This document shows, one piece after another, positions 36,756 to 63,923 of a stretch of 64,000 nt of DNA (positions are counted from its first letter, which is position 1; the number at the start of each line of letters is the position of its first letter). Both the position numbers and the translations under genes were made by a program. Origin of the DNA: Vicinamibacterales bacterium (GTDB lineage: Bacteria > Acidobacteriota > Vicinamibacteria > Vicinamibacterales > 2-12-FULL-66-21). The notes beneath the pieces were generated by a model. The model ran no database searches, was not told the origin of the DNA, and was given only the letters and a program-made list of their open reading frames with translations. The stretch lies in assembly GCA_035699745.1 (NCBI GenBank), contig DASSPH010000099.1, forward strand, positions 129,841 through 193,840. The letters are read 5' to 3'.

Positions 36756-36767
36756 CGCCCAGCTCCC

Positions 36768-36814
36768 AAAATCGCTCACCCAAAATCCCTCACGCCGGTG
36801 GCCTCCTGTTGACA
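36768..36814 (+). promoter_or_regulatory. Conserved direct-repeat motif plus TTGACA upstream of padR (copy 1)
   Basis: AAAATCGCTCACcCAAAATCCCTCACGCC, then 12 nt, then TTGACA (36809-36814), 32 nt before the ATG at 36846. Near-identical to copy 2 at 43248..43280. Confidence 0.5.
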
Positions 36815-37198: not shown

Positions 37199-39817
37199 AT
37201 GGCGCGTCGCCACGACCCTTCGGATGACGAGTTTCGGGAAGAAGTCGAGTCGCACGTCGCGCTCGAGACCGACCGCCTGCTGGCCGAGGGCGTCAGCCCA
37301 GAGGAAGCCGCAATGGCGGCCCGGCGAAAGTTCGGGAACGTCACCCGTGTCCGGGAGAACTTCTACGAATCGCGGCGCGTGATGTGGTTCGAGGACCTGC
37401 GACATGACACGCGCTTTGCAGTGCGCTCCTTGCAACGCAGCCCCGCGTTTACAGCCGTGGCCCTTTTGACTCTGGCAATAGGCCTGGGCGCAAATACGGC
37501 GATCTTCAGCGTCGTCAATGCGGTTCTGCTGCGCCCACTTCCGTATAACGCGCCTGACCAGTTGGTCCTGCTGGAGCATCCGCCGCTTGGCGGGAGCCCC
37601 GCCTGGTTAAGAGACGCCTGGCACGCGCGATCGCGCACGCTGACGGAGTTCGCCGGCATCGAGCCGTCCGCGCCAGCGACACTCGTCGCCGGAATTCAGC
37701 CGATGCCTGTCAACGCTGCGCACGCCACGGCGAACTTCTTCGCACTGCTGGGCATCAAGGCTTCGCTCGGAAGGATCTTCGCCGAGACAGATACCCAGCC
37801 TGGGGCGCCGGCGGTCGCGGTGCTCAGCCACAGCTTCTGGATTCGGCAGTTTGATGCCAGTGCCGACACCATCGGCAAGAGCATCACGCTGACGGATGTA
37901 ACCTTGACGGGCGAGCCGCGCGTTATCATCGGCGTGCTCCCAGCCGATTTCCGCTTCCCCGTTGCGGACCCGCCTGGTGAAGCACCGATATTCGCGAGGA
38001 TGCAACCAGATGTCATCGTTCTCTCCCGGGATGACGCGTTTCAGCAGGTGATTGGAAGGCTCGCTCCCGGAACGACAGCGGCGAAGGCCTCAACCGAGTT
38101 GTCCGGCATCTTTGCCCAAGAAGCGTCCGCACGTTTTTCGGCGCGTTTCGTTGAGCGCACGCGTGTCATCGCAATGCCTCTTCAGGATCGCCTCGTCGGC
38201 AATGCCCGGTATCGGCTGCTGCTGCTCATGGGTGCCGTGGGCTGTGTTCTCCTCGTGGTGTGCGCCAACATCGCCAGCCTTCTGTTGGCGCGCATCACCG
38301 GACGCGGACCCGAGTTTGCCGTCCGCGCGGCGCTCGGCGCGCGGACCGGCCGCCTTGTACGCATGATCCTGACAGAGAACGTCCTCCTCGCCATTTTCGG
38401 CGGCGCAGTTGCACTGTTCCTCGCGTACTGGAGCAATGACGTGCTCCGCTCGCTGCTCGCAGGTCGTGTCTCCTACGTCGAAACCGTCGCACTTGACTGG
38501 CGGGTGTTGGCCTTCAATCTCGCCGTCGCCGCGGCTATGGGTGTGGTCTGCGGGCTCGCATCTCTCGCGACGATTTGGTCGACCCGGCACGCAGGGAGCA
38601 CGACCGCAGCTGGTCGATCCATCACCCGACGCCCGCGCCTAGGTTTGACCCTTGTGGCCGGGGAAGTCGCCGTCGTGTTCGTCTTAGTCTTGATGGCGGC
38701 GCTGTTGTCTCAGACGCTCTGGAACCTTCGTCACACCAGGCGAGGTTTTGACGCGAGCGGACTGCTGACCGCCGGGGTGATGCCGGGAGCGTCCGGCACC
38801 ATTCCCGAGTTGCAGAACCTGACCGTGACGTTCTTCGGCACGATCGTCGATCGCATCGCTCGAGAGCCGAATGTGGAATCGGTAGCGGCAGCGTCAACCG
38901 TGCCGTTCAGCGGTCCGGCTATGGGGATGTCCGGCGTGTCGGTCGTGGGCCGCCAGGCACCCGACAAGACCCCGCCAGTCTCTGTCGCGGCCGTCACACC
39001 GGGCTATTTCGCGACGATGCGGATCCGGTTGATAGGTGGCCGTGATTTCAACAGGGGGGATGTTCCGTCGCGAGACCGCGTCGCCATTGTCAACGAGGCT
39101 TTCTTGCGAGTGATCGCGTCGGCCCTGACACCTGGCACAGAGATCCAGTTTGGCCGCTCTCGCCTGACAGTAATCGGCATCGTCGAGAACACACCGGACA
39201 CGTCGCTCCGGCGACCGGCTCGGCCGTTTGTGTATCTCCCAATGGCTCAGACCATCGGCAGCCAATTCGCTTTCGGCCGGTTGATGATCCTAGTGCGCGC
39301 GCGTAGTGGCGACCCGGCCGCGCTGATCCCCACCCTGCGCAACACCGTCTGGAGCCTCGGACACGACATCGTGATAGATGACGTCAGCACGATGGACGAA
39401 CGGGTCGGCGCGGCAGTGCGCACGGAGCGGGACAGCGCGCTGTTGTTTGGAGTGCTAGGCGCCATCGCACTAGTCGTTGCCGTCGCCGGTGTGTACGGTG
39501 TCGTCGCGTACTCGGTTTCGCAGCGCACTCGGGAGATCGGGATTCGAACGGCTATCGGTGCGACTCATCGTCAGGTGGTGGCCGGCATCGTCCGAGAGTC
39601 GGTTTGGCCCGTCGCAATCGGGATAGGAATCGGGGCTGCCACCGCGGTCGTCGTCGTGCGCGCGATCGCGGGACTTCTTTTTGAAATTAGGCCCACGGAT
39701 CCGCCGACCTACGTCGGGACGGCCGTCGCTCTGACTCTTACGGCCTTGGCGGCAGCGTGGATTCCCGCACGGCGGGCTGCTGGGGTCGATCCGGTCACGG
39801 CACTTCGCGCTGAATAG
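37199..39817 (+). CDS. ABC transporter permease, FtsX-like duplicated (MacB-like) family
   Basis: 872 aa. Two FtsX-type 4-TM modules, each with a periplasmic domain; C-terminal IPARRAAGVDPVTALRAE. Starts 2 nt after the padR stop. Confidence 0.9.
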   Translation: MARRHDPSDDEFREEVESHVALETDRLLAEGVSPEEAAMAARRKFGNVTRVRENFYESRRVMWFEDLRHDTRFAVRSLQRSPAFTAVALLTLAIGLGANTAIFSVVNAVLLRPLPYNAPDQLVLLEHPPLGGSPAWLRDAWHARSRTLTEFAGIEPSAPATLVAGIQPMPVNAAHATANFFALLGIKASLGRIFAETDTQPGAPAVAVLSHSFWIRQFDASADTIGKSITLTDVTLTGEPRVIIGVLPADFRFPVADPPGEAPIFARMQPDVIVLSRDDAFQQVIGRLAPGTTAAKASTELSGIFAQEASARFSARFVERTRVIAMPLQDRLVGNARYRLLLLMGAVGCVLLVVCANIASLLLARITGRGPEFAVRAALGARTGRLVRMILTENVLLAIFGGAVALFLAYWSNDVLRSLLAGRVSYVETVALDWRVLAFNLAVAAAMGVVCGLASLATIWSTRHAGSTTAAGRSITRRPRLGLTLVAGEVAVVFVLVLMAALLSQTLWNLRHTRRGFDASGLLTAGVMPGASGTIPELQNLTVTFFGTIVDRIAREPNVESVAAASTVPFSGPAMGMSGVSVVGRQAPDKTPPVSVAAVTPGYFATMRIRLIGGRDFNRGDVPSRDRVAIVNEAFLRVIASALTPGTEIQFGRSRLTVIGIVENTPDTSLRRPARPFVYLPMAQTIGSQFAFGRLMILVRARSGDPAALIPTLRNTVWSLGHDIVIDDVSTMDERVGAAVRTERDSALLFGVLGAIALVVAVAGVYGVVAYSVSQRTREIGIRTAIGATHRQVVAGIVRESVWPVAIGIGIGAATAVVVVRAIAGLLFEIRPTDPPTYVGTAVALTLTALAAAWIPARRAAGVDPVTALRAE

Positions 39818-53192: not shown

Positions 53193-56100
53193 TCCTTCGT
53201 GATCGTCTCGTCGAGATTGAGCAGCGCGTTCGCCACGAGCGTCCAGTCGGGATGCCGCCGGAACATCGCCACGATGAGATCGAGCTCCTGCGGCTTCGGG
53301 GCGCGCGACGTCACGAGCCGGAAACCGTACGCCGCGCGCACTCGGACCGGGTCGGCCGAGGGTTCGATCTCGGGCTCCGTCATCATCCGGCGTCCGAGCG
53401 CACCCGCCATCTCGAAGAAGGCCTCGTCGTTCAGCATCGTGAGCGCCTGCAGCGGCGTGTTCGTGCGCACGCGGCGAACGGTGCAGGCCTCGCGGCTGGT
53501 GGAGTCGAACGTCGTGAACGCGGGGTACGGCGCGGTCCGCCGCAGGAACGTGTAGAGGCCGCGGCGATAGCGATCCTCTCCCGTGCTGGGCACCCACCGA
53601 TCGCTGCTGTACGGGTTCTGCCAGATCCCGTCGGGCTGCGGCGGGAACACGCTCGGTCCGCCGATCCGGCGGGACAGCAGACCGCTCGCCGTCAGTCCGA
53701 TGTCGCGCACCATCTCCGCCTCGACGCGGAACCGCGGCCCGCGTGCGAACAGCCGGTTGTCGGGGTCGCGCTCGGCCAGCGGAGGCGTGATCGCGGACGC
53801 CTGCCGATACGTGGCCGACATCACGATCAGCCGGTGAAGCGGCTTCAGCCGCCATCCCTGCTTGACGAAGGTCACCGCCAGCCAGTCGAGCAGATCGGGA
53901 TGCGACGGCGCCGCCCCCTGCGATCCGAAGTCCTCGCTCGTCTCCACGAGGCCGCGGCCGAAGAACTGTTCCCAGGCGCGGTTCACCGTCACGCGCGCCG
54001 TCAGCGGATTGCGTTCGTCCACGAGCCAGCGCGCCAGTCCCAGCCGGTTCGGCATCACGTCGTCCGGCAGTGCGGGCAGGAACGAGGGCACCGCCGCATA
54101 CACCTGTTCTGCGCGATCGAGGAAGGCGCCGCGGCGCCGCACCCACGTCGAAGGGCGCTCGTACCCCGGCTTCTCCTTCATGACCATCGCGCTCACGATG
54201 CCGAGCTCGCGCAGCGACTTCTGCAGCGCTTCGACGCGATCGCGGGTTGTCTTGAAAAGCGGCGACACGGCACGGAACCGGGCCGCGAGATCCCTGGTCT
54301 GCTGCTCGGTCCGCCGCGCGCGAGGCGTGAGGAGCGAGGGGCGCAGACGCGCGGCGACGCTGACCGCGCGCAGCGGCGATGGGCTGGTGGTGACGGACAG
54401 GCGGAATCGCCCGAGCCCCTGGCCGACCGGCGCGGTCGTGACGATCGAGAACTGCAGCGCCGCGCCGGCGGCGCCGAGCGGCCGATCGGCAACGAAGATC
54501 CCCTGGCGCCGCACGCGCCCGGCCGGATCGCGCGTCGCATCGACCACCCACCCCGCAGAGGACACCGACCCATCGTCCGTCTTGATCGGCGCCAACGGTA
54601 CGGATGCGCCGTTGCCGGTCGTCACGGTGAGCGCGCTGAGCACGAAGTTGCCGTAGGGATCGCGTCCAGGCCCGCCGCCCGGCAGCCGCGCATCGGGCAG
54701 CGCCTCGATCCTGATCGCCGTAATGCCGGGGACGGGCGCCCTGGCGGCAACGGTGTAGGTATTGGCGGCGGGATTGGGACCGCTCACGAGCACCGACTTG
54801 TCGGCAAGCCGCTCGCCGGTCGAACCGCCGCTCGAGTCGAACCGCTCGACCGTGAGCGGTATCCACGCGCGCTCTGCCGCGAGCAGGCTCTGCTCCCATC
54901 GCGCCTGCGCCGCTGCTCGCGCCGGTGAGTCGGCGCGGAGCGAGGCATTGTGCTTGTCCAACTCCGCCTGCAGCGCCTTGCGGCGGGTCTCCTGCTCCGC
55001 GGTCGGGAGGCTGATCTGCGGCTCGTCGGCGAACCGATCGCCGCCCGCCTGCCCGGCGATCGTGTACTCGACGTTCTCGAAGAAGGCGAGCATCCGGTAG
55101 AAATCGCGCTGCGTGAACGGGTCGTACTTGTGGTTGTGGCACTGCGCGCAGCCGAGGGTCGACCCGAGCCAGACCGTCGCCGTCGTGTTCACGCGATCCA
55201 CCAGCGTCTCCCAGCGCGCTTCCTCCACGTCGATGCCCCCCTCCTGGTTGAGCATCGTGTTGCGATGGAAGCCGCTGGCGATCCGCTGCGCCTCGGTCGC
55301 GCCGGGCAGCATGTCGCCGGCGATCTGCTCGATCGTGAACCGATCGAACGGCATGTCCGCGTTCAGGGCGTCGATCACCCAGTCCCGGTACTTCCACATC
55401 ACGCGCAGGCGATCCTTTTCGTAGCCGTGCGAATCGGCATATCGCGCGAGGTCGAGCCAGGGGCGCGCCCACCGCTCGCCGTAGTGCGGCGATGCCAGCA
55501 GCCGATCGACGACATGCTCGTAGGCGGCGTCGCGTCCGTTGGCGGCGGCGTCGGCGAGCGCGGCATCGAGCTCCGCGAGCGTGGGCGGCAGGCCGATCAG
55601 GTCGAGCGACACGCGGCGGACGAGCGTTTCGAACGCGGCTTCCGACGACGGGGGGAGCCGTTCCTTCTCCAGGCGGGCGAGGACGAAGCGATCGATGTCG
55701 TTGCGCGGCCAGGCCGCGTTTCCGGCGGCGGGCGGATGCGCGGCAACGGGCCGCACGTACGCCCAATGCGTGGATTCGGGTTCGCCGGCGGCGGCGGGCT
55801 CGGCCCCCGGCTGGCCCGGCCACGCGGCCCCCTGATCGATCCAGGCACGAATCAACGCGATCTGCGGCGCCGTCAGCGGCTCCGCATCCTTCGGCATCGG
55901 CTCTTCGCCGTCCAGACCGCGGATGCGACGGACGAGAAGGCTGCGCTCGCTGTCGCCGGGGACGATCGCCGACCCGCTGTCGCCGCCTCTGAACGCCGCG
56001 GCACGGAGGTCCAGCCGCAGCCCGTTCCTCGCCTTCTTCGGGCCGTGGCATTCGTAACAGCGGGCCTCCAGGATCGGCTGGATATCGCGGGCGAAGTCGA

Positions 56101-56239
56101 CCGGCGACTGGGGCGCCGATCCCTGCTGCCGCGCGGCCGCGACGCGGCCGGCGATGAGGGCGATCAGCGCCGCCGTCGCGGCGCGCCGCGCAAACGTCAG
56201 GAAGCGGGAGATCTCGGGCATCCCTGCGGGCGCGGCCAT
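53189..56239 (-). CDS. PSCyt1/PSCyt2/PSD (DUF1549-DUF1553) multidomain protein
   Basis: 1016 aa. [20 protein letters not shown] (PSCyt1); [13 protein letters not shown] (DUF1549-type); typical partner of DUF1501. Confidence 0.85.
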
Positions 56240-56380
56240 TCAATCACGGGGTCGCGTCTGGCGGCAACGGCTGTCGTCGCCAGCTTCACGGTCCAGCCGT
56301 CGAGGTTGCGTCCGCAGGGCAAACAAGGCCAACCGGGTCCGCATGTCGTGTCCGCGTCGTATTATGTCGCCGCGAGGGAG

Positions 56381-57142
56381 ATGGACATGAGAAATGTGAC
56401 ACGAACGTTGATGGCCGTCGCGCTGGCCGGCGCCGCGGCTTCACAGGGGATCTTCGCGCAGCAGCCCGCGCAGCCGCCCGCGGCCCCGCAGGGCGGCGGA
56501 CGGCAGGGGCAGCCGCAGCCCATGACCTTTTTCGTCACGAGCGTCCCCAAGGGGGACGGCGCGAATTACGGCGGGCTTGCCGGCGCGGACGCGCACTGTC
56601 AGGCGCTCGCGGCCGCCGTCGGACGCGGCGACGTGAAATGGGTGGCGTACCTCAGCACACAGGGGCCGAATGCGGTGAACGCGCGCGACCGCATCGGCGC
56701 GGGTCCGTGGTTCAACGCCAAGGGGCAGCAGATCGCCGCGACCGTCGCCGAGCTGCACGGCGACACGATCGAGCAGGCACGCCTGGGCAACCGGATTCAG
56801 AAAGTGTCGGCGTTGAACGAGAAAGGCGGACTGGTCAACGGCGTGGGCGACTCGCCGAATCAGCACGACATCCTGACCGGGTCCACGCCGGAGGGGCGCG
56901 CGTTTCCGGAGGGAGCCGATCGCACCTGCAGCAATTACACGAGCAACGCGGCGGGGCCGGCCGCCACGCCGGGTCAGCCCCCGCCCGCCGGGCCGTCGGT
57001 GCAGCTTGGACATCACGATCGCCTGGGCGGCCCGAATGCGTCGTGGAACTCCGTTCACGCGAGCCGCGGGTGCAGCCAGCAGAACCTGGTCTCGACCGGC
57101 GGAGCGGGCCTCCTGTACTGCTTCTCGCCGGGCCCGCGCTGA
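56381..57142 (+). CDS. Secreted hypothetical protein
   Basis: Start MDMRNVTRTLMAVALAGAAASQGIFAQQ (signal). No family recognised. The track's upstream extension from 54950 is junk. Confidence 0.5.
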   Translation: MDMRNVTRTLMAVALAGAAASQGIFAQQPAQPPAAPQGGGRQGQPQPMTFFVTSVPKGDGANYGGLAGADAHCQALAAAVGRGDVKWVAYLSTQGPNAVNARDRIGAGPWFNAKGQQIAATVAELHGDTIEQARLGNRIQKVSALNEKGGLVNGVGDSPNQHDILTGSTPEGRAFPEGADRTCSNYTSNAAGPAATPGQPPPAGPSVQLGHHDRLGGPNASWNSVHASRGCSQQNLVSTGGAGLLYCFSPGPR

Positions 57143-57226
57143 CCGAAGAGGCTGCCCCTCGCCCGGACGGGCGGGGGGCAGCGACGTCTTTGGCGTGCTG
57201 TCAGCCGGCAGTCGAGGCCACGGCGT

Positions 57227-58072
57227 TCACTTTGCAGCCAGCTGCGCGCGCAGGAACTTCACGCCGTCGAACGCGATCGAGTCCACCGTCGGCGCCAGGT
57301 CTCGCCAGATCGCCGCGGCGGCAGACAACTCGCCGAGCGCGAACCCGAAGCTCTCGATCACCATCCAGCGGTCGTAGCCGATCGACCTCAGCGTGGTGAA
57401 GAACTCGCGCCAGGCGACGTGCCCCGTGCCGGGCGTGCCGCGATCGTTCTCGCAGGTGTGCAGGTGCTTCAGGTGCGGCGCGGCCGCGCGCAGCGCCTCG
57501 CCGACCGTCTTCTCCTCGATGTTGGCGTGGAACGTATCGAACAGCAGGCCGATCGACGGATGCCCGACGGCGTCGCAGAACTTCGCGCCGTCGGCGGCCG
57601 TGTTCAGGAAATACGTCTCGAAGCGGTTCAGCGGCTCGATCCCGATCTCGACGCCGGCGTCGGCGGCCACCGGCGCGAGCGCCTGCCAGGTCTCCACTCC
57701 CCATTTCCACTCATCCGCGGTCCGCCGCACGCCGGTCAGATAGCCGACCGGCGAGTACATCGGCCCGGACAGGATCGTCGCGCCCGCTTCGGCGGTCTGC
57801 CGGATGCACGCCGTGAGATGCTCACGCGTCCGCGCCCGGACGGCGGCGTCGGACGAGCCGATGTGCATCCCCGCCGGCACGACGCTGACCGCCGTCGCTT
57901 CGAGCCCGGCGCGCTCGAGCTCGCGGCGGATGGCGGTCGCGGGAAGGTTCTTCGGATCGAGCACCGCGAACTCGATGCCGTCGAACCCGCCCTCCTTGAT
58001 CCCTGCCAGGCGGTGGAAATCCGCGGGGCCGAAATGCACGCCCCACAAGAACGTATTGACGCCGATTTTCAT
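57227..58072 (-). CDS. Sugar phosphate isomerase/epimerase (xylose-isomerase-like TIM barrel)
   Basis: 281 aa. MKIGVNTFLW...GFDGIEF...EIGIEPLNRFET...HLHTCENDRG motifs of the AP-endonuclease-2/TIM family. Confidence 0.8.
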   Translation of the reverse strand: MKIGVNTFLWGVHFGPADFHRLAGIKEGGFDGIEFAVLDPKNLPATAIRRELERAGLEATAVSVVPAGMHIGSSDAAVRARTREHLTACIRQTAEAGATILSGPMYSPVGYLTGVRRTADEWKWGVETWQALAPVAADAGVEIGIEPLNRFETYFLNTAADGAKFCDAVGHPSIGLLFDTFHANIEEKTVGEALRAAAPHLKHLHTCENDRGTPGTGHVAWREFFTTLRSIGYDRWMVIESFGFALGELSAAAAIWRDLAPTVDSIAFDGVKFLRAQLAAK

Positions 58073-58123
58073 CGTTCATTCCCGGGAGGCTGCGCCCCCC
58101 GGACTCCCTGCACGCTGCCGGTC

Positions 58124-59071
58124 CTATTGTTTGCGCGGCGGCTTGGGGTCGAGATTGACCGTCAAGTCTTCCGGCGCGATGGTGTCGACGACGCCCTTCG
58201 GCGGCACGTCGACCCTGGCGATCCACAGCAGCGCGTTCAGCACGATACGCCGCTGATTGGCGTCGCCCCAGTTGGCGTGCGTGTGGCCGCCGGTGAAGCC
58301 GAAACTCCGCCCGCCGTCCGGCCGCTCGAACACCCACATCATCGTCTCGGCGCGCCCCTTGTCCGCGATGATGTGATCGTACGGCCCGCGCGGGCTCACG
58401 TAGGGACCGTCGCGCACGTCCTCGCTCGGCGTCGCCACGAGCAGCGGCAGGATGCGCGGCTTGAGCTTCTCGTCCGCGGTCCAGCGCATGTTGAAGTACC
58501 ACTCGTCGTGGTTGGAGAACGGCCCGACGCCGCGCGTGACCGGATGCGGCGGGAACTTCTCGAAGTTCGGCGCCCACATCGGATTCACCGAGTAGTTGGT
58601 CTCGTAGTAGCCGCCCGCCCAGCGGTGCATGGCCGCCCCCGGCTCGCCCACCGGCACCTCCACCCCGTAGTGGCCGAACCCGAGACCGACCCCCTTCTTC
58701 GCCAGCGCGTCGATCACCTGCATCCGATCGTTCTGGATCGCCGGATGGCCTCGCCCGCCGTCGGCATAGATGAACACGGCGTCGGCGCCGTCGAGCGCGG
58801 CGTGATCGTCGACCTCGTTGCCGTCGACGGTCTTCTTCGGCCATCCCATCGGAATGACGTCGACCGTGACCCCCTTCACCGCCGACATCGCCTTCTGCAG
58901 CAGCAGCGATCCGGCGCGGAACTCGTGCATGCCGGGCGGATGGCTCGGGCGTCCGGCGATGATGACGATGCGCTTGGCACGCGTCTGCGTCCCGGCCGGC
59001 GTCGTGGTCAGGACGACGGCGGCGGCGGCGAGCGCAATGGCGGCGATGGGTCTCCAGAACATAAGCACCAC
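58124..59071 (-). CDS. ThuA-family protein, secreted
   Basis: 315 aa. Signal peptide; ThuA-like motifs (DAVFIYADGG, ETNYSVNPMW, GFTGGHTHANW). Confidence 0.8.
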   Translation of the reverse strand: MVLMFWRPIAAIALAAAAVVLTTTPAGTQTRAKRIVIIAGRPSHPPGMHEFRAGSLLLQKAMSAVKGVTVDVIPMGWPKKTVDGNEVDDHAALDGADAVFIYADGGRGHPAIQNDRMQVIDALAKKGVGLGFGHYGVEVPVGEPGAAMHRWAGGYYETNYSVNPMWAPNFEKFPPHPVTRGVGPFSNHDEWYFNMRWTADEKLKPRILPLLVATPSEDVRDGPYVSPRGPYDHIIADKGRAETMMWVFERPDGGRSFGFTGGHTHANWGDANQRRIVLNALLWIARVDVPPKGVVDTIAPEDLTVNLDPKPPRKQ

Positions 59072-59074
59072 CGA

Positions 59075-60202
59075 TCAGAACTGAGGAATGACGATCTTCT
59101 CCCCGCCCGCGAGCGCGCTCTGATGCGCGCAGATGCCCACCATCGTCCAGTTGACGGACGTTTCCGCGTCAGGCATGGCCGGCCGCTCGCCAAGGCAGGC
59201 GAGCAGGAAGTTGTGGACGAGATGCGGGTGCGAGCCGCCGTGGCCGCCGCCCTGGAGAAAGGACAGGTGCTCGGCATCCTGAATCGCCGCCGGCTGCGTG
59301 AAGCGGCGGATCGGTTCCGGCAGCAGGTGCGCGTAATCGGGCACCTTGACGCGTTTCGGAATCTCCGGCTCGCCGAGCGGGGCTTCGGCGGTGCTCTTGG
59401 TGTGGATCACCGGTTCCTCCCCCTCGACCTGCTGCCACTCGAACGACTTCTTCGATCCGTAGGCATCGAAGCTCTCGCGGTACTGGCGGGCGGTGTTGAA
59501 CAGGCTGCGCGTCACCTCGGCGCACACGTCCGAGTCGCGCAGCTTGAATGTGGCCGTCTCAATCGCGAACGGGCTGCCGTACCTGGGAATCAGACGTTCG
59601 TCGATGCGGCCGGAGCCGTGACACACGACGTGCTCGGCGTGCCTGCCGAGGAGCGCGAGGCACGGGCTGACGCAGTGCGTCGCGTAGTGCATCGGCGGAA
59701 ACCCTTCCCAATAGCCCGGCCACCCGTCCATGTCCTGCTGATGGCTGCCGCGGAGAAACTGGATCCGCCCGAGCTCCCCGCGATCGTACAGCTCCTTGAC
59801 GAACAGGTACTCGCGGCTGTAGACGACCGTCTCCATCATCATGTAGACGCGGCCGCTCTTGCGCTGCGACTCGACGATCTGCCGGCATTCGTCGATGGTC
59901 GTCGCCGCCGGCACCGTGCTCGCGACGTGCTTGCCCGCCTTCAGCGCGGCGATCGACTGCGGCGCGTGATCGGCGATCGGCGAGTTGATGTGGACGGCAT
60001 CGACATTCGGGTCCTTCAGCAGCTCGTCGTAGCTGGTATAGCGCGCCTTGATCCCGAACCGATCGCCGCACGCGTCCAGCTCGCGCTTGTCGCGCCGGCA
60101 GATCGCGTACATCTCGGCGCCGGGATGCCGCTGATAGATGGGGATGAACTCCGCTCCGAAGCCGAGACCAACGATTGCGACGCGAATTTTTCTCTCTGCC
60201 AT
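59075..60202 (-). CDS. Gfo/Idh/MocA family oxidoreductase
   Basis: Start MAERKIRVAIVGLGFGAEFIPIY (Rossmann GxGxxA). The track's N-terminal 31 codons translate the heptamer repeat and are not coding. Confidence 0.85.
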   Translation of the reverse strand: MAERKIRVAIVGLGFGAEFIPIYQRHPGAEMYAICRRDKRELDACGDRFGIKARYTSYDELLKDPNVDAVHINSPIADHAPQSIAALKAGKHVASTVPAATTIDECRQIVESQRKSGRVYMMMETVVYSREYLFVKELYDRGELGRIQFLRGSHQQDMDGWPGYWEGFPPMHYATHCVSPCLALLGRHAEHVVCHGSGRIDERLIPRYGSPFAIETATFKLRDSDVCAEVTRSLFNTARQYRESFDAYGSKKSFEWQQVEGEEPVIHTKSTAEAPLGEPEIPKRVKVPDYAHLLPEPIRRFTQPAAIQDAEHLSFLQGGGHGGSHPHLVHNFLLACLGERPAMPDAETSVNWTMVGICAHQSALAGGEKIVIPQF

Positions 60203-60244
60203 CTGGTAACTGGAAACTGGTAACTGGAAACTGGAAACTGGTAA
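60203..60244. repeat. 6x tandem heptanucleotide repeat (CTGGWAA on the + strand; TTWCCAG on the mRNA strand), immediately 5' of the Gfo/Idh/MocA start codon
   Basis: CTGGTAA CTGGAAA CTGGTAA CTGGAAA CTGGAAA CTGGTAA at 60203-60244, abutting CAT (start codon, minus strand) at 60200-60202. Confidence 0.9.
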
Positions 60245-60258
60245 CCGGCACCGGTTAC
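60241..60258. other. Perfect 8-bp palindrome GTAACCGG-CA-CCGGTTAC overlapping the TAA stop of the upstream gene
   Basis: Seen directly in the sequence. The stop codon TTA (reverse complement TAA) lies at 60255-60257, inside the right arm. Confidence 0.7.
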
Positions 60259-63200
60259 TGTCCGCCGCGCCCTCTCCCGGCCGGCGCCACGACATTCAGC
60301 ACGCCGTTCATCGTCCGCCAGTGGGCCGGGAACGTGCAGACGTAGGGGTATTGTCCCACCTGGGCCGGCGCCCGGAACTGCGCCACGATCGTCTCGCCGG
60401 GATTCGCCAGCTTCGTCGAGAACAGGACGACGGGCAGATCCGGCACGTACTGCTGCTGCAGCGCCACCTCGGGTGTGGTCGCCATCCGGTCGGCCGCCTC
60501 GCCGATGACGTTCATCGATCCCGGCGCGCCGAGCACGAAGTTGTGGAGCATCAGGTCCGGGTTGGCGAACACGATCTCGACCAGCTGCCCGGGCGCAACC
60601 GTGATCTGCGACAGATCGAACCGCATCTGGTCTTTGACGGCCGACAGCCGAATCACCACGTCGGGCGCCTGCGAGGCGACGGGCGGCAGCGTCGCCGCCG
60701 CGCCAGAGACGCCCCCGGCGGCGGTCAACGCCACGTGTGCGGCGAGCTCCCCCGGCTTCGCGTAGAGGGCGCCGGCATTCGTCTGCCGTTCGACGCGGTA
60801 CTTCCAGCCGCCCGCCAGGCTGGCGGCAAACCGCGCCGCGCCTCCCAGCTCGCTCGCCGACGGGCCCTCGATGAACATCTGGTCCGGCGCGCCGGTGAAT
60901 CCGCCCTCGCCGCGGCCGTTCTGGATTCGAACGGTGATCGTGTTCGCCCCCTGCCGGAGCGTCCCCTGCGCAACCGCGTAGCGGCCGCTTCCACGCCCGC
61001 CGCCGGGCGCGGCGCCCGGCGGCGCCGGCGCGAAGGACACCGACTGCCCGTTGATCCACACCTCGGCGTTGTTCCGGACCGGCCCGAATGACAAGGTCGC
61101 CGCCTCGGCGCCCCCCTTCCAATCGATCGTCCGTGTGAACCACACCACGCCGTCGAAGTCGGGAAGCCCGCGTGTTTCCCACGCGCCGGGGACCTGGATG
61201 TCCTTCCACTCGGCGGAGAGATCCGCGGCCGCAGGCATGCGCCAGTCCGGCTTCAGATTGCCGAGGCGCAGCGGCACCGGCAGGGCGGCGAACGCCACCG
61301 CCGCCTTGTCCGCCTTGTACATGGCGAGGAAGGGATCCTGATGCCGCGTCGCGGCGATGTAGAAGGCGCGCCCCAGCCACTTGTCGCCGAAGTTCTCCGG
61401 CTTGGCGCTCTCTCGATAGATCGCCTGCCCGATCTCGGCTGACGTGGGCATGTCCGCCACGACGAGCGCGACGGCCAGCCGCGTATGCGGATCGGGGTCC
61501 GCGAGCGCGCCGGCCGACAGGATTGCCGCCGCCGAGGCGGGATCCTTCGGCAGCACCATCGCGGCCGCCTTTCGCACGCCGGCCGCGGGGTGCTTCAGCG
61601 CATCGACCGCGGCACGGAACGCGTCGCTCGTCGTCGAGGTCAGCTCGCCGAGACCGTGCAGCGTCCACAAGGCGTGGAACGCGGCGCCGTTGGTGCCGAC
61701 TTCGTCGACCGACGTGTTGCGCGTCAGCGCGATCAGCTTCGGGACGACATCCTTCTGCCCGCGCTCGACGAGCAGCCGCTGGGCGTGCAGCCGCCACAAC
61801 ATGTTGTCGGACGCGAGGGCCGCCAGCAGCCCGGCCGGATCCTTCTTCGAGAGCGACCGCCGCGGGGCGGCCGGCGCCTTGTTGTAGACGACGCGATAGA
61901 TGCGGCCGCGCTGCTTGTCGCGGAGCGACGTTTCGAACGCGTTCCCGGGGCCGTTGCTGAACCCCGGCGGCGTCGGGTTGTGTTGCTGGATGAAATTGTA
62001 CCAGTCGGCGATCCACACGGCGCCATCGGGGCCGACCTGCGCCTGGATCGGCGCTACCCATTCCTCCGCGCCGGCGAACAGGTTCCAGCCGTCGTGCGCG
62101 ACGAAGCTCGAGCCCTGCTTCTCCATCACCGCCTGGCCGACCAGATGCGCGGTGGGCTCGGTGATGAAGGCGATGCGGTTCCAGTACTGCTTCGGAAACG
62201 ATCGCGCCGTGTAGAGGTAATGCCCTGCAGCCGCGGTGTAGCCGCCGTGGACGTCGACCTGCCGGATGTAGGGAGTCGTGTGATGCACCGCGTAGAACGC
62301 CGCGGAGCTCTGGTAGCCCGGCCCGACGCCGCGGCCGGTGAACGGCCCGCCGGGCAGCCCTTGCAACCCTTCGAAATAGCGGTTCGGGATGGCGACGTAG
62401 AAGCTCGGATCGTTGTTGGCGGTCGATCCGAAGACGTCGAACGTCTCCGAGAACCCGAGGCCCCACGTATTGTTGGTCGAGCCCGTGATGTGCTCGAAGC
62501 CGGTCTTGCCGTCCGGCTTGAAGCGGAACGCCGCCTGCGCGAAGTTGAACGGTTTGCCGCCCACCTGACCGTTGAAGCCCGAGTAGCCGACGACCCCCCA
62601 GATGTGGTTGTCGGGCGCGTACTGGATGTTCGACGCGACCGCGTGGGTGTCGCGAATGCCCCACCCGGTGTGCAGGATCTCGCGCACGTCCGCCTTGTCG
62701 TCGCCGTTGGTGTCCTTCAGGAACAGCGTGTGCGGCGGCTGCGTCACGATCACGCCGTCGTTGGCGAACGCGAGGCTGGTCGGGATGTTCAGGTTGTCGG
62801 CGAACACCGTGAACTTGTCGGCGCGGCCGTCGCCGTTGGTGTCCTCGAGAATCTTGATCCTGTCGCTGCCCGGCTCGCCGTTGAGCGGGACGTTCGGATA
62901 GTCCACCGTCTCGATCACCCAGAGACGGCCGCGCTCGTCGAAGGAGAAGGCGATCGGCTTGATGATCTGCGGCTCGCTGGCGAACAGCTCCACGCGGAAC
63001 TCGGCCGGCACCTGGATGAACTTCATGGACTCTTCGGGGGTGAAGGGCATCTGGTACTTCGGCGCCGGGCTGCGGTTCTCGTAGTTCGGCACCGGCAGGC
63101 CGTCCACGTACACCACCGGCGGCATGCGCGCCTGCTCGGTCCAGGCGGCGCGCGCCGCGTCGTTCACCGCCCACGTGGTGCCGCGCTCGACGAGCGCCTG

Positions 63201-63923
63201 GAACCCCGGGACGTTCCAGGTGCGCTCGTCATGGCCGAACGCGGTGTAGAAGACGCGCCCCTTGCCGTGCGTGCGCACCCAGGTGTACGGCTCGCGCCCC
63301 TGCGCGTCCACGCGCTCCATCAGCACGACCCGATCGACGGGGTTGTGCTTGGTGTGGACGTAGGTTTCGTCCCACGGCGTCGTGAAGTTCTCGAACCCCT
63401 TCATGATCGGATGCTCGGGCTGCACGATCTCGGCGCGGATCTCGCCGGTTCCGTGCCGCTGGAACTGGCCGCCGACGAGCGCGATGAACGGCTCCGAGTT
63501 CTGGAACATGAACGACGCGCAGTGGAGGACGACGAGCCCCTTGCCGCCGGCGACGAAATCGAGCAGCGCCTTCTCCTGCTCGGGCGTGATCTTCGTGTGG
63601 TTGGCGTAGAGCATCAGCGCGTCGTAGTTCGCCAGCGTCTCGGCGTCGAGCGCCTCGTCTGGCGTATTGACGTGCGTGATCTGGATCCCCTTGCGCGCCA
63701 TCGGCGGCGCGAGCACCTGGTACAACGCGGCCGAGTTGTGGTGCCGCTGGTCCTGGCCGAGCATGAGGACCTTGAGGGGCCTGAACGACGCCGCCGCCCG
63801 CTTCGCGGCGGGTGCGGCCCCCTGCCGCGATTGCGCGCCGATCGAGAACGGCGCCAGACCGATTGCGGTTGCGGCGAGTCCCACGGCCAGCCGCACCCAC
63901 CATGCCATGCGTGTCATCGTCAC
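60255..63923 (-). CDS. Large secreted multidomain protein: ThuA-like N-domain, beta-propeller dehydrogenase-like domain, HEAT-like repeats, C-terminal cupredoxin (azurin-like type-1 Cu site)
   Basis: 1222 aa. N-terminal LKVLMLGQDQRHHNS...TAFGHDE (ThuA-like). C-terminal HNFVL...YPYVCTFPAHWRTMNG matches the azurin/plastocyanin His-Cys-His-Met ligand pattern. Confidence 0.8.
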   Translation of the reverse strand: MTMTRMAWWVRLAVGLAATAIGLAPFSIGAQSRQGAAPAAKRAAASFRPLKVLMLGQDQRHHNSAALYQVLAPPMARKGIQITHVNTPDEALDAETLANYDALMLYANHTKITPEQEKALLDFVAGGKGLVVLHCASFMFQNSEPFIALVGGQFQRHGTGEIRAEIVQPEHPIMKGFENFTTPWDETYVHTKHNPVDRVVLMERVDAQGREPYTWVRTHGKGRVFYTAFGHDERTWNVPGFQALVERGTTWAVNDAARAAWTEQARMPPVVYVDGLPVPNYENRSPAPKYQMPFTPEESMKFIQVPAEFRVELFASEPQIIKPIAFSFDERGRLWVIETVDYPNVPLNGEPGSDRIKILEDTNGDGRADKFTVFADNLNIPTSLAFANDGVIVTQPPHTLFLKDTNGDDKADVREILHTGWGIRDTHAVASNIQYAPDNHIWGVVGYSGFNGQVGGKPFNFAQAAFRFKPDGKTGFEHITGSTNNTWGLGFSETFDVFGSTANNDPSFYVAIPNRYFEGLQGLPGGPFTGRGVGPGYQSSAAFYAVHHTTPYIRQVDVHGGYTAAAGHYLYTARSFPKQYWNRIAFITEPTAHLVGQAVMEKQGSSFVAHDGWNLFAGAEEWVAPIQAQVGPDGAVWIADWYNFIQQHNPTPPGFSNGPGNAFETSLRDKQRGRIYRVVYNKAPAAPRRSLSKKDPAGLLAALASDNMLWRLHAQRLLVERGQKDVVPKLIALTRNTSVDEVGTNGAAFHALWTLHGLGELTSTTSDAFRAAVDALKHPAAGVRKAAAMVLPKDPASAAAILSAGALADPDPHTRLAVALVVADMPTSAEIGQAIYRESAKPENFGDKWLGRAFYIAATRHQDPFLAMYKADKAAVAFAALPVPLRLGNLKPDWRMPAAADLSAEWKDIQVPGAWETRGLPDFDGVVWFTRTIDWKGGAEAATLSFGPVRNNAEVWINGQSVSFAPAPPGAAPGGGRGSGRYAVAQGTLRQGANTITVRIQNGRGEGGFTGAPDQMFIEGPSASELGGAARFAASLAGGWKYRVERQTNAGALYAKPGELAAHVALTAAGGVSGAAATLPPVASQAPDVVIRLSAVKDQMRFDLSQITVAPGQLVEIVFANPDLMLHNFVLGAPGSMNVIGEAADRMATTPEVALQQQYVPDLPVVLFSTKLANPGETIVAQFRAPAQVGQYPYVCTFPAHWRTMNGVLNVVAPAGRGRGGQ

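Follow-up and report, generated by a model that had tools for sequence, protein, structure and literature searches.

A six-unit heptamer array between two genes of a soil Acidobacterium is a lineage-specific microsatellite and probably serves as an unstructured spacer

The over-representation of heptamers in bacteria is an old question. STRRs, defined in cyanobacteria, are dispersed intergenic heptamer tandems that are hypervariable between relatives, often number tens of copies, and lack an assigned function; their units, reportedly described by Mazel and colleagues in 1990, are said to be CCCCAGT, TTGGTCA, and CAACAGT. TAACTGA repeats, found in marine Beggiatoaceae, some cyanobacteria, and Bacteroidetes (MacGregor 2015, PMC4679880), are 7-nt units in tandem sets of two to six that are almost always intergenic, abut a start codon without an RBS, are predicted to be unstructured, and in some cases extend into the end of the ORF upstream. 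The genes downstream of them show no functional pattern. Their type genome holds ~170 sets, the mRNA carrying the TAACTGA strand (“forward”); 147 of 170 sets face a start and 12 face a stop, and TAACTGG never occurs there as a direct repeat. Intergenic heptamer arrays are also described for Xanthomonas (GGGAATC), Nostoc (GGGGAYT) (PMC4692102), and Geobacter metallireducens (MTYCTGA) (PMC2700814); these often occur as inverted pairs able to form stem-loops, and their length and sequence vary at the same junction between close relatives. The Xanthomonas and Nostoc repeats are G rich and quadruplex forming, and the Geobacter sites are fixed five-unit sets annotated as putative global-regulator sites. 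The best-documented case of repeat number tuning expression is the heptanucleotide SSR (ATCTTTC)n transcribed in the 5′ leader of Haemophilus influenzae hmw1A, an adhesin gene under host selection, where 10 repeats pair with a G-rich arm in a long hairpin that is cut by RNase III (PMC12721329).

The array considered here lies in the DNA of a soil Acidobacterium, within a stretch of 64,000 nt that was analyzed as a whole (the window; 68.6% GC). The features that matter to the argument are as follows.

60255 to 63923, minus strand: ThuA/DUF7133/HEAT/plastocyanin-azurin (cupredoxin) fusion gene (Pfam; GC3 of 0.92 on the minus strand), with an uncertain start codon at 63923, 63917, or 63908
60255 to 60257, minus strand: TAA stop codon of the cupredoxin-fusion gene, read from 60257 to 60255 (ORF)
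60241 to 60258, no strand assigned: perfect 8-2-8 palindrome, GTAACCGG-CA-CCGGTTAC, spanning the upstream TAA, with one arm overlapping the first heptamer
60203 to 60244, minus strand: tandem heptamer array of six units (sequence, Tandem Repeats Finder, RNA fold)
60196 to 60202, minus strand: ATGGCAG, made up of the ATG and the four bases that follow it, in phase with the array as a degenerate seventh unit (xxxxCAG); family D1 begins with CTGCCAT at 60196
59075 to 60202, minus strand: Gfo/Idh/MocA oxidoreductase gene (Gfo), 375 aa, ATG at 60202 to 60200 (homologues and Pfam); its leader is the palindrome arm and the array only
58124 to 59062, minus strand: ThuA-like gene, 312 aa, next in the operon, with its ATG 12 nt past the Gfo stop (Pfam)
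57227 to 58072, minus strand: xylose-isomerase-like TIM barrel gene, last of the co-directional set (Pfam)

On the plus strand, positions 60203 to 60244 are six exact CTGGWAA units in the order CTGGTAA, CTGGAAA, CTGGTAA, CTGGAAA, CTGGAAA, CTGGTAA; the gene strand accordingly reads TTACCAG, TTTCCAG, TTTCCAG, TTACCAG, TTTCCAG, TTACCAG, with every unit perfect except at the A/T position. A preliminary description of this DNA, made from the letters alone, had stated that six TTWCCAG heptamers form the leader right up to the ATG, and the coordinates agree with this, as they do with the 52-nt gap (60203 to 60254) that it gave between the two genes. The gap, which separates the upstream TAA from the Gfo ATG, is filled by the array and a palindrome arm, and the array runs from 10 nt past the upstream stop exactly to the ATG. 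Tandem Repeats Finder assigned it period 7 and 6.1 copies (score, 65 to 79). The two-unit pattern matched 5 times, versus 0.14 times expected from shuffles, and none of 100 shuffles reached 5. The array is thus real and nonrandom, and it is the only one of its kind within the 64-kb window. The repeat phase runs on into the gene, since ATGGCAG is itself a degenerate seventh unit; orthologues likewise start with ATGGC(N)G, and ATGGCAG is therefore ancestral coding sequence, which may have been the seed of the repeat. Either recent origin or selection could account for the perfection of the units.

The start codon that defines this leader is well supported, because a Pfam Rossmann domain begins at residue 6 and orthologues start at the same place, with the same M-x-x-(x)-K-I-R-V-A-I N terminus. 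Within the 20 nt before this ATG there is no GGAG, GAGG, or AGGA, which upholds the preliminary view of a leader devoid of a Shine-Dalgarno (SD) sequence; SD sequences of this type are present in 52 of 72 distinct orthologous loci. It could be argued that the array is itself coding, with Gfo starting at an in-frame ATG at 60295 and carrying an N-terminal extension that contains LPVSSFQ LPVSSYQ. The ORF from 59075 to 60295 does stay open across the array, because 6 × 7 = 42 nt is divisible by three and TTWCCAG is free of stops in every frame. However, such an extension would run 41 nt into the upstream gene and has no signal-peptide character, and the full-length Gfo homologues listed are mostly 369 to 376 aa long and start at the conserved MxxxKIRVAI. 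Homologue lengths, the conserved N terminus, and the Pfam domain boundary led us to reject the extension, to which we give almost no credence. Also rejected was a plus-strand gene following the array, as the usual orientation of the repeat class would have it: the 30 nt beyond the array contain no start codon, and the coding strand is the minus strand (GC3, 0.92).

Set beside the TAACTGA repeats, the window array has the same unit length, a set size within the same range, an intergenic position abutting a start without an RBS, and a predicted lack of structure, and the palindrome attached to it covers the upstream stop codon. Shifted into the TAACTGA register, its units read as three TAACTGG (one mismatch) and three AAACTGG (two mismatches). 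In contrast with the forward sets of that class, the mRNA here carries the reverse complement, and the density is one array per 64 kb of Acidobacteriota sequence versus the ~170 sets of the type genome. The array is also STRR-like in being a noncoding heptamer tandem of at least three copies whose unit recurs at unrelated loci and in other genomes, although it is short and belongs to a high-GC Acidobacterium rather than to a cyanobacterium. The Geobacter unit has a CTGR core in common with the window unit, but the window array is not a fixed five-unit set, and unlike the Xanthomonas and Nostoc repeats it is neither G rich nor quadruplex forming. As in hmw1A, the repeat is a heptanucleotide SSR within a transcribed 5′ leader; the hmw1A features of a processed hairpin and fluctuating selection are lacking, the array here being unpaired, six units long, and placed before a metabolic gene.

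Among relatives, the array was absent from all 75 orthologous upstream regions (64 to 92% amino acid identity), only two of which (L168 and L188) had heptamer arrays upstream, made of other units and in the usual inverted layout. Nothing was conserved at the junction between the cupredoxin and Gfo genes: in L121, the one clean syntenic relative, stop and start overlap as ATGA; in L127, the spacer between them measures 206 nt and contains inverted tandem arrays of the CACGATG type; and in L128, it measures 185 nt and contains GC-rich hairpins. At orthologous junctions of L037 and L099, Acidobacteriota genomes with ~90% identity, the arrays bear no relation to each other, and of the two paralogous flanks in L036, one has (TTACCAG)4 and the other has (TTTCCAG)3. 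Arrays of this class are thus rapidly gained, lost, or replaced between relatives at orthologous sites. The sequence comparison indicates that the window array is lineage specific and is not a conserved regulatory element of the operon, and we conclude with high confidence that it is a heptanucleotide microsatellite of the CAG/CTG class (unit, TTNCCAG/CTGGNAA) restricted to this lineage. With the two proteins encoded downstream of Gfo as queries, Logan contigs 99.8 to 99.9% identical to window positions 55311 to 59941 were found in SRR26663107, SRR25158179, SRR25158460, and SRR34018707; these same-strain contigs (L229 to L232) end inside Gfo, falling at least 261 nt short of the ATG. The first 100 residues of Gfo used as a query returned no fragment with more than 90% identity, and exact protein matches were found neither for Gfo (375 and 406 aa) nor for the upstream protein (1,220 and 1,217 aa).

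The preliminary description had called such leader repeats classic substrates for slipped-strand variation. The turnover of the class elsewhere (the 75 orthologues without the array, the L037/L099 pair, and the two flanks of L036) fits this, but a 7-nt change is frame neutral here and the gene is not a typical contingency gene. An extension of the idea is that the array is a contingency (phase-variable) locus in which gain or loss of heptamers would grade expression of Gfo and the genes downstream heritably, by analogy with hmw1A, where a 5′-UTR heptamer controls expression (PMC12721329). A perfect six-unit microsatellite within a 5′ leader, of a class that varies between close relatives and between paralogous flanks, is what this idea would lead one to expect. 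We nevertheless regard it as quite improbable. For the hmw mechanism to work, 11 or more repeats must pair with a G-rich arm and undergo RNase III processing, and the window array is predicted to be unpaired; copy number affects neither the reading frame nor promoter spacing; and the genes encode a sugar-type oxidoreductase of the cytoplasmic type (Gfo), a ThuA protein, and an isomerase of a free-living soil bacterium, not surface or restriction functions.

Instead, we favor, with a probability of roughly 0.6, the reading that the array is a microsatellite born of slippage that acts as an unstructured, SD-free spacer uncoupling two genes. It would have arisen in this lineage by replication slippage between two co-transcribed genes, a pair that is translationally coupled by the ATGA overlap in the nearest syntenic relative. 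Translational coupling is reported to require overlaps or very short spacers (reviewed in PMC12548453), and with stop and start moved 52 nt apart, termination-reinitiation coupling should weaken or vanish. The array would also have removed any SD sequence and left a fully unpaired, pyrimidine-rich, low-GC leader. Since a 30S subunit can bind an unpaired leader without an SD (by standby or S1-type initiation), Gfo and the proteins encoded downstream would still be produced, probably in a different proportion relative to the upstream protein. As the microsatellite is perfect, the tract is expected to drift in length in 7-nt steps, which would tune spacing and not switch the gene on or off. A role as an unstructured spacer only is, on this model, the most likely one, and we have moderate confidence that the mechanism would be that of a physical spacer with no sequence-specific regulatory site.

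The folding predictions are compatible with such a spacer. On the gene strand, the RNA of the array is 36% U, 29% C, 21% A, and 14% G (43% GC), its minimum free energy alone is 0.0 kcal/mol, and it is predicted to be unpaired in the centroid fold. A 131-nt leader folds worse than 194 of 200 shuffles (z = +1.82), and the sole pairing retained in its centroid fold is the palindrome stem, 7 bp closed by a 4-nt loop (GUAACCG-GUGC-CGGUUAC; −9.2 kcal/mol). The palindrome itself is as first described, an 8-2-8 perfect inverted repeat that holds the upstream TAA, and GTAACCGG occurs as a palindrome arm only once in the window. On its own, however, it is unexceptional, because the window contains 33 perfect inverted repeats with 8-nt arms (loops of 0 to 6 nt) versus ~20 in shuffles, and we therefore rejected it as a stand-alone signal. 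The small hairpin on the stop codon would probably be a by-product of the first repeat unit. No U-tract follows the palindrome, and a consensus scan found no terminator-like site between 59000 and 61500; an intrinsic terminator was thus rejected, as was a REP-type hairpin, given the single occurrence of this palindrome arm in the window. No Rfam family was detected between 58000 and 62000 even at E values up to 5, nor in the arrays of 18 related loci.

The same tract could instead act after the upstream stop and set operon polarity, as a rut-like entry site for Rho or as an element for RNA processing or stability. Its composition would suit a rut site (64% pyrimidine, a C/G ratio of 2.0, nine YC dimers, and no structure), the −9.2-kcal/mol hairpin sits on the stop codon, and the array begins 10 nt past that codon, with TTNNCAG arrays likewise located 0 to 13 nt past stops in L122, L123, L073, L084, and L113. 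Typical rut sites, though, span ~70 to 80 nt, and the 42-nt tract is shorter; the spacer bears no terminator signature; and by our own count among the matches listed, arrays of either orientation adjoin stop codons about equally (~19 versus 14). A polarity element of this kind seems improbable to us. Less probable still is a DNA-level element, in which the palindrome would be the operator of a dimeric regulator and the heptads would be transcription factor sites for an internal Gfo promoter. Heptad models of this sort are known from the ToxR TTTTGAT heptads of ctxAB and from SARP heptamers, and here a perfect 8-2-8 palindrome is joined directly to direct repeats with a 21-bp superperiod (95% match; Tandem Repeats Finder), equal to two helical turns. 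Against it, the element sits within a co-directional gene set, palindromes of equal size are common in the window, orthologous junctions conserve nothing, and no sigma-70-like promoter was found by a consensus scan, which covers canonical promoters as opposed to noncanonical Acidobacterial ones.

The motif is not confined to this locus. A scan for (CTGGWAA)3 with one genome per species returned at least 120 loci, whereas chance would yield about 2 matches to a 21-mer in 596 Gb by our own arithmetic; among the matches listed, 30 loci were from Acidobacteriota and 23 were from cyanobacteria, as judged by record title. The motif was also present in 28 stretches of viral contigs, which was not decisive for a phage or mobile origin. 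TTACCAG and TTATCAG arrays occurred in loci of Prochloron, Scytonema, Brasilonema, Rivularia, and Microcystis; CCCCAGT-type units occurred in an Acidobacteriota locus (L037); and one locus from the clade to which the window belongs (L051, Vicinamibacterales) had the same alternating CTGGTAA/CTGGAAA unit as the window. Across 405 kb of sequence from relatives, a repeat period of seven was more frequent than any other (19 arrays). According to the preliminary description, the array would be an incidental run if it were unique, invariant in copy number, and absent from orthologous loci. There is indeed one array in 64 kb and none in the 75 orthologues, but the motif is widespread in bacteria, and the window array is another case of a fast-changing heptamer type that is common between bacterial genes.

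Arrays of this class are oriented with respect to genes. Among the matches listed, a qualified gene start lay −2 to +30 nt from the CTGGNAA end of 28 arrays and from the TTNCCAG end of 7 (P = 5 × 10^−4), a statistic that rests on crude ORF and GC3 gene calls at nonindependent loci. Where NNNNCAG tandems accompanied a CTGGNAA array among the matches listed, they were on its 5′ side in 23 cases and on its 3′ side in 3. Pfam-verified genes downstream of class arrays included ftsZ, purS, and genes for a MacB/FtsX permease, a HAD hydrolase, zf-HC2, Wzt, and an AlkB-like protein, and in Acidobacteriota, CTGGNAA arrays reach verified start codons in phase, as CTGxx(x)ATG. The window array has the minority orientation: both flanking genes are on the minus strand, and the mRNA carries TTWCCAG.

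This orientation bears on the other possibility raised at the outset, that the repeats are reiterated binding sites for a regulator. In its RNA form, the mRNA array would be a candidate platform for a posttranscriptional regulator or for the ribosome (S1, cold shock-type, or CsrA-like), substituting for an SD. The published TAACTGA repeats provide a precedent, with a matching anatomy: two to six heptamers next to a start that has no RBS, in some cases reaching into the end of the upstream ORF (PMC4679880). Read as TAACTGG/AAACTGG, the window units depart from TAACTGA at one or two bases; CTGGNAA arrays of Acidobacteriota keep phase as far as verified starts; and a Nostoc preprint reports expression effects upon deletion of heptamer repeats. 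Translational roles have been proposed for related repeats (PMC4679880; bioRxiv 10.1101/2022.06.06.494920), and a neutral-spacer reading may for that reason undersell the array. What weakens the proposal is that the mRNA strand here is the reverse complement of the strand that faces starts elsewhere (28 versus 7 among the matches listed and 147 versus 12 in PMC4679880), so that a strand-specific RNA binder would miss its site. Moreover, the array is found in none of the 75 orthologues and only once in 64 kb, and no heptamer-binding protein has been identified in any organism. The precedent thus stands, but the array is reversed relative to its class, and we consider a binding platform at this locus possible but doubtful.

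A broader and equally tentative proposal, which we think unlikely, is that CTGGNAA/TTNCCAG arrays are a cross-phylum, orientation-dependent intergenic element that is placed or read by a conserved factor or a mobile-element mechanism and that replaces the SD. The preferred layout would be STOP-(TTNCCAG)n-loop-(CTGGNAA)n-START, running in phase into starts such as those of ftsZ and purS, with some arrays appearing to bound a conserved ~75-nt core common to MAGs of different phyla. On that view, the window would have only the reverse half of the element (“reverse-only”), with a naturally SD-free leader as the result.

With the spacer reading preferred, the locus taken alone is minor, a single microsatellite in a single operon of a soil bacterium of the uncultured type, and its value comes from context. 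Beyond cyanobacteria and Beggiatoaceae, where they are long established, heptamer tandems are common in Acidobacteriota as well as in several other phyla, and their orientation toward start codons follows a rule that can be measured. The gene pair offers a natural experiment, being coupled by ATGA in a relative and split here by 52 nt of RNA predicted to be free of structure and of an SD, and the locus could be used to ask how SD-free leaders are translated in a high-GC organism. If copy number varies, the array would be a handy strain marker. A separate observation concerns the relatives L122 and L123, in which (TTCGCAG)6 and (TTGCCAG)4, respectively, lie 10 to 13 nt past a stop codon; the recurrence of TTNNCAG arrays of relatives ~10 nt past stops hints at a positional preference.

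The array before the Gfo/Idh/MocA oxidoreductase gene (Gfo) is a real microsatellite that belongs to a widespread, fast-evolving heptamer class and lies here in the minority orientation. Six heptamers filling most of a 52-nt gap had been described at this place, and the sequence, Tandem Repeats Finder and the ORF ends confirmed them. The features are as follows.

60203-60244, heptamer array, read from the sequence on the + strand as CTGGTAA CTGGAAA CTGGTAA CTGGAAA CTGGAAA CTGGTAA
60257-60255, − strand, TAA stop codon of the upstream ORF (1222 codons)
60202-60200, − strand, ATG start codon of Gfo
Co-directional four-gene set around the array (Pfam): ThuA-DUF7133-HEAT-cupredoxin fusion, Gfo/Idh/MocA, ThuA-like, xylose-isomerase-like TIM barrel

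From stop codon to ATG (52 nt), the mRNA reads ccggugccgg-(UUWCCAG)6-AUG. Tandem Repeats Finder gave a period of 7 and 6.1 copies, with super-periods of 14 and 21 nt. A pattern search of the whole 64 kb for the two-unit pattern CTGGWAACTGGWAA returned 5 matches, all in the array and none elsewhere in the window; shuffled sequences held a mean of 0.14 matches, and 0 of 100 shuffles reached five. The Gfo ATG is secure, since the Pfam Rossmann domain starts at residue 6 and the orthologues share the N-terminus M-x-x-(x)-K-I/V-R-V-A-I. Homologue N-termini and domain boundaries likewise contradict the idea that the array codes for an N-terminal extension of Gfo, which is scarcely credible. Because the gene's first seven bases, ATGGCAG, form a degenerate seventh unit, the heptamer phase runs on into Gfo. 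As the preliminary description had stated, no Shine-Dalgarno (SD) core was found within 20 nt of the ATG, and the palindrome over the upstream stop codon (GTAACCGG-CA-CCGGTTAC, 60241-60258) is perfect and overlaps the first heptamer. On its own the palindrome is unremarkable, since the window contains 33 perfect inverted repeats with 8-nt arms and loops of 0-6 nt, compared to ~20 in shuffled sequence. All three frames are open through TTWCCAG arrays; on the complementary strand, CTGGTAA units bring a TAA into each of the three frames within 21 nt. An ATG at 60295 (− strand) is in frame with Gfo at six units (42 nt), and this frame is lost with five or seven.

The window has a GC content of 68.6%, and the named sequences most similar to the Gfo protein come from MAGs of Vicinamibacterales and Acidobacteriota. 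These relatives, and a PadR gene beside an ADOP-like permease ORF (see below), suggest an acidobacterial source, probably in the order Vicinamibacterales. Neither a sigma-70-type promoter nor an intrinsic terminator was detected around the spacer, and no Rfam family matched there; from this we infer that the ThuA-cupredoxin, Gfo, ThuA-like and TIM barrel genes are co-transcribed. The same lack of a detected promoter, together with a lack of conservation, argues against a DNA operator or reiterated transcription factor sites, a very improbable explanation.

Absence from orthologous loci, which the preliminary description had counted against its own proposals, is what we observed. A protein-guided scan of metagenome contigs gave 80 loci with Gfo orthologues (64-92% aa identity); the upstream region was readable in 75, and 0 of these 75 had the array of the window. 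A GGAG-type SD preceded the orthologue in 52 of 72 distinct loci. The cupredoxin gene was directly upstream of Gfo on the same strand in only three loci. At the nearest syntenic relative (L121, 92% aa identity), the array junction is an ATGA overlap of cupredoxin stop and Gfo start; the 206-nt spacer of L127 (2642-2847) holds inverted tandem CACGATG/CATCGTG arrays, and the 185-nt spacer of L128 (105-289) holds three GC-rich hairpins, GGGGCGGGGCC...GGCCCCGCCC. Since these contents differ, the junction takes different repeat elements by lineage, the heptamer array being peculiar to that of the window.

Rapid turnover of the class was evident in L037 and L099, two Acidobacteriota contigs that are ~90% identical in coding DNA, and in L036, where two copies of one flank set enclose (TTACCAG)4 in one case and (TTTCCAG)3 in the other. 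The junctions compared were as follows.

L037, 930-1170 and 3440-3715
L099, 3595-3745 and 6305-6535

At these orthologous junctions, the nested inverted arrays are wholly different, with units of CTGGGGA/CCCCAGT, CGAAAAT, TTTCCAG and others; such differences indicate that the class evolves fast. Four same-strain Logan contigs (L229-L232, from SRR26663107, SRR25158179, SRR25158460 and SRR34018707), reached via two downstream proteins, are 99.8-99.9% identical to window positions 55311-59941 and end inside Gfo, at least 261 nt short of its ATG, so the array lies outside all four. Lookups of the exact Gfo and upstream protein sequences matched no record, and the first 100 residues of Gfo, used as a query, retrieved nothing above 90% identity.

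Other arrays of this kind had been suggested as a check, and the motif, confined to one place in the 64 kb, is widespread in other genomes. Scanning one genome per species for (CTGGWAA)3 gave at least 120 loci; by our arithmetic, ~2 matches to a 21-mer would be expected by chance in 596 Gb. Among the matches listed, 30 are Acidobacteriota by record title (Vicinamibacterales, Terriglobia, Pyrinomonadaceae) and 23 are cyanobacteria, the remainder including Poribacteria, Desulfonema and other Desulfobacterales, Planctomycetota, Verrucomicrobiota and Bacteroidota. Listed arrays have 3-28 units, and one-base variants with a CAG/CTG core (TTTCAAG, TTATCAG, TCACCAG, TTGCCAG, CTTCCAG) flank or mix into them. 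The alternating CTGGTAA/CTGGAAA unit of the window recurs in L051, a Vicinamibacterales MAG locus. In 405 kb from relatives of the window, tandem repeats most often had a period of 7 (19 arrays, each with at least 3 copies), many units being of the CAG/CTG class. Viral or proviral contigs also carry (CTGGWAA)3, in 28 stretches on about 17 contigs, including L201, L211 and L213 (IMGVR_UViG_2265129009_000001); one 33-kb contig has six matches, and two others have five each.

The array belongs to the already known heptanucleotide simple sequence repeats of the STRR/TAACTGA-like class. Heptameric repeats are reported to be overrepresented in bacteria, and cyanobacterial ones are a long-standing finding (PMC4692102); tandem heptanucleotides with the consensus MTYCTGA occur in Geobacter metallireducens (PMC2700814), and in Nostoc, heptamer repeats near start codons reportedly affect expression without an established mechanism (bioRxiv 10.1101/2022.06.06.494920). 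The closest published description is that of MacGregor (2015), who reported ~170 TAACTGA repeat sets, each of 2-6 units, in the genome of one of the Beggiatoaceae, nearly all intergenic and most of them “forward,” directly upstream of a start codon and usually without a ribosome binding site; binding of a translational factor (S1, Csp or CsrA-like) was proposed (PMC4679880). Read as (TAACTGG)n, the CTGGTAA unit of the window is one base off TAACTGA. Forward orientation to the start codon defines that proposed functional subclass, and the window array fails in this respect.

Orientation is indeed biased elsewhere. Using crude gene calls of our own (ATG/GTG −2 to +30 nt from the array end, opening a reading frame of 100 codons or more, with high GC3 required at GC-rich loci) on partly nonindependent loci, we found a gene start past the CTGGNAA end of 28 arrays versus the TTNCCAG end of 7 (binomial P = 5e-4), or 9 versus 2 for Acidobacteriota only; a NNNNCAG tandem within 200 nt of a CTGGNAA array was 5′ 23 times and 3′ 3 times (P = 9e-5), all among the matches listed. 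A recurrent Acidobacteriota layout is STOP-(TTNCCAG)n-spacer-(CTGGNAA)n-START on the gene strand (e.g., L019, L016, L050, L064, L113, L073 and L123); alternatively, a lone CTGGNAA array directly precedes the ATG, as at ftsZ (L047), purS (L065), a HAD hydrolase gene (L098) and a MacB/FtsX permease gene (L051). Pfam confirmed both the genes downstream of forward arrays and their called starts for FtsZ, PurS, the MacB/FtsX permease, HAD hydrolase, a zf-HC2 anti-sigma factor, a Wzt ATPase and an AlkB-like oxygenase. Forward arrays are often in phase with the start codon, as CTGxx(x)ATG, just as TAACTGA-N-ATG is arranged in Beggiatoaceae, and by our reading their GGA(A) stands at an SD-like distance (5-8 nt) from the ATG in 4 of 8 starts examined. 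The window is an exception to this rule: its mRNA carries the TTWCCAG strand up to the ATG, no + strand start codon was found within 30 nt on the forward side of the array, and the + strand there is antisense to a gene with a GC3 of 0.92. The interpretation in the preliminary description is thus partly supported: its anatomy stands, but its proposal of regulator sites is weakened by reversed orientation, nonconservation and a single copy in 64 kb, and a strand-specific RNA-binding factor like that proposed for TAACTGA is unlikely for the same reasons.

On the mRNA, the 131-nt region around the spacer was out-folded by 194 of its 200 shuffles (z = +1.82); the sole pairing in the centroid fold is a 7-bp hairpin over the stop codon (−9.2 kcal/mol), and (UUWCCAG)6 by itself yields a minimum free energy of 0.0. 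The tract is 36% U, 29% C, 21% A and 14% G (64% pyrimidine; C/G = 2), with 43% GC versus 68.6% for the window. We favor, with a probability of about 0.6, a slippage-born lineage microsatellite that acts physically as an SD-free, unpaired spacer. The array may have been seeded on the CAG of ATGGCAG, and its effect would be physical rather than sequence specific. Since termination-reinitiation coupling reportedly works only across overlaps or very short spacers (PMC12548453), 52 nt between stop and start should weaken it; the array would also remove the SD, leaving an unpaired pyrimidine-rich tract as a platform where SD-independent initiation could occur. Length steps of 7 nt would then tune expression rather than switch it. 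In Haemophilus influenzae, hmw1A carries an (ATCTTTC)n repeat in its 5′ untranslated region that tunes expression via a long hairpin processed by RNase III (PMC12721329). A phase-variable contingency switch has only a slim chance here: the array has neither the hairpin of known cases nor their dependence on frame or promoter, and it precedes a gene of another class. Similarly improbable is a Rho-entry or RNA-processing element acting past the upstream stop codon; the composition fits, and TTNNCAG arrays recur just past stop codons, including 10-13 nt past those of Gfo orthologues ([TTCGCAG]6 in L122 and [TTGCCAG]4 in L123), but the tract is short and both orientations adjoin stop codons about equally (~19 versus 14 by our count among the matches listed).

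An element of ~110 nt, (TTTCCAG)2 plus a conserved core of ~75 nt plus (CTGGAAA)3, was seen in L008 (7472-7583), L075 (4365-4470) and L027 (6755-6865), with 81-87% identity between MAGs labelled Acidobacteria and Heliobacteriaceae, for which misbinning is possible. Its heptamer arrays form inverted ends, which give it a MITE-like appearance. This element, common to MAGs of different phyla, the STOP-reverse array-loop-forward array-START layout and the phasing of arrays with verified starts could together mean that heptamer arrays form a cross-phylum element, dependent on orientation and possibly mobile, that replaces SD sequences, a reading that we consider doubtful.

Two other repeats in the window deserve mention. 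A GC-rich hairpin, GGGAGTCCGGGGGGCGCAGCCTCCCGGGAA (58079-58110, − strand), fills the spacer from the ThuA-like stop codon (58124) to the xylose-isomerase-like ATG (58072), and a near-identical motif, agggagtccgaggggcgaagcccctcggag, is directly upstream of Gfo orthologues in four other loci (L122, L129, L133 and L160), so the hairpin resembles a dispersed, REP-type element of the clade. At 36765-36793, a 14-nt direct repeat, CCCAAAATC(G/C)CTCA x2, just upstream of a TTGACA-like hexamer, may be an operator. It is followed by a putative PadR-family regulator gene (from its sequence; ATG 36846) and then by an ORF (37199-39817) whose N-terminus presumably resembles that of an Acidobacteria-type duplicated (ADOP) permease.
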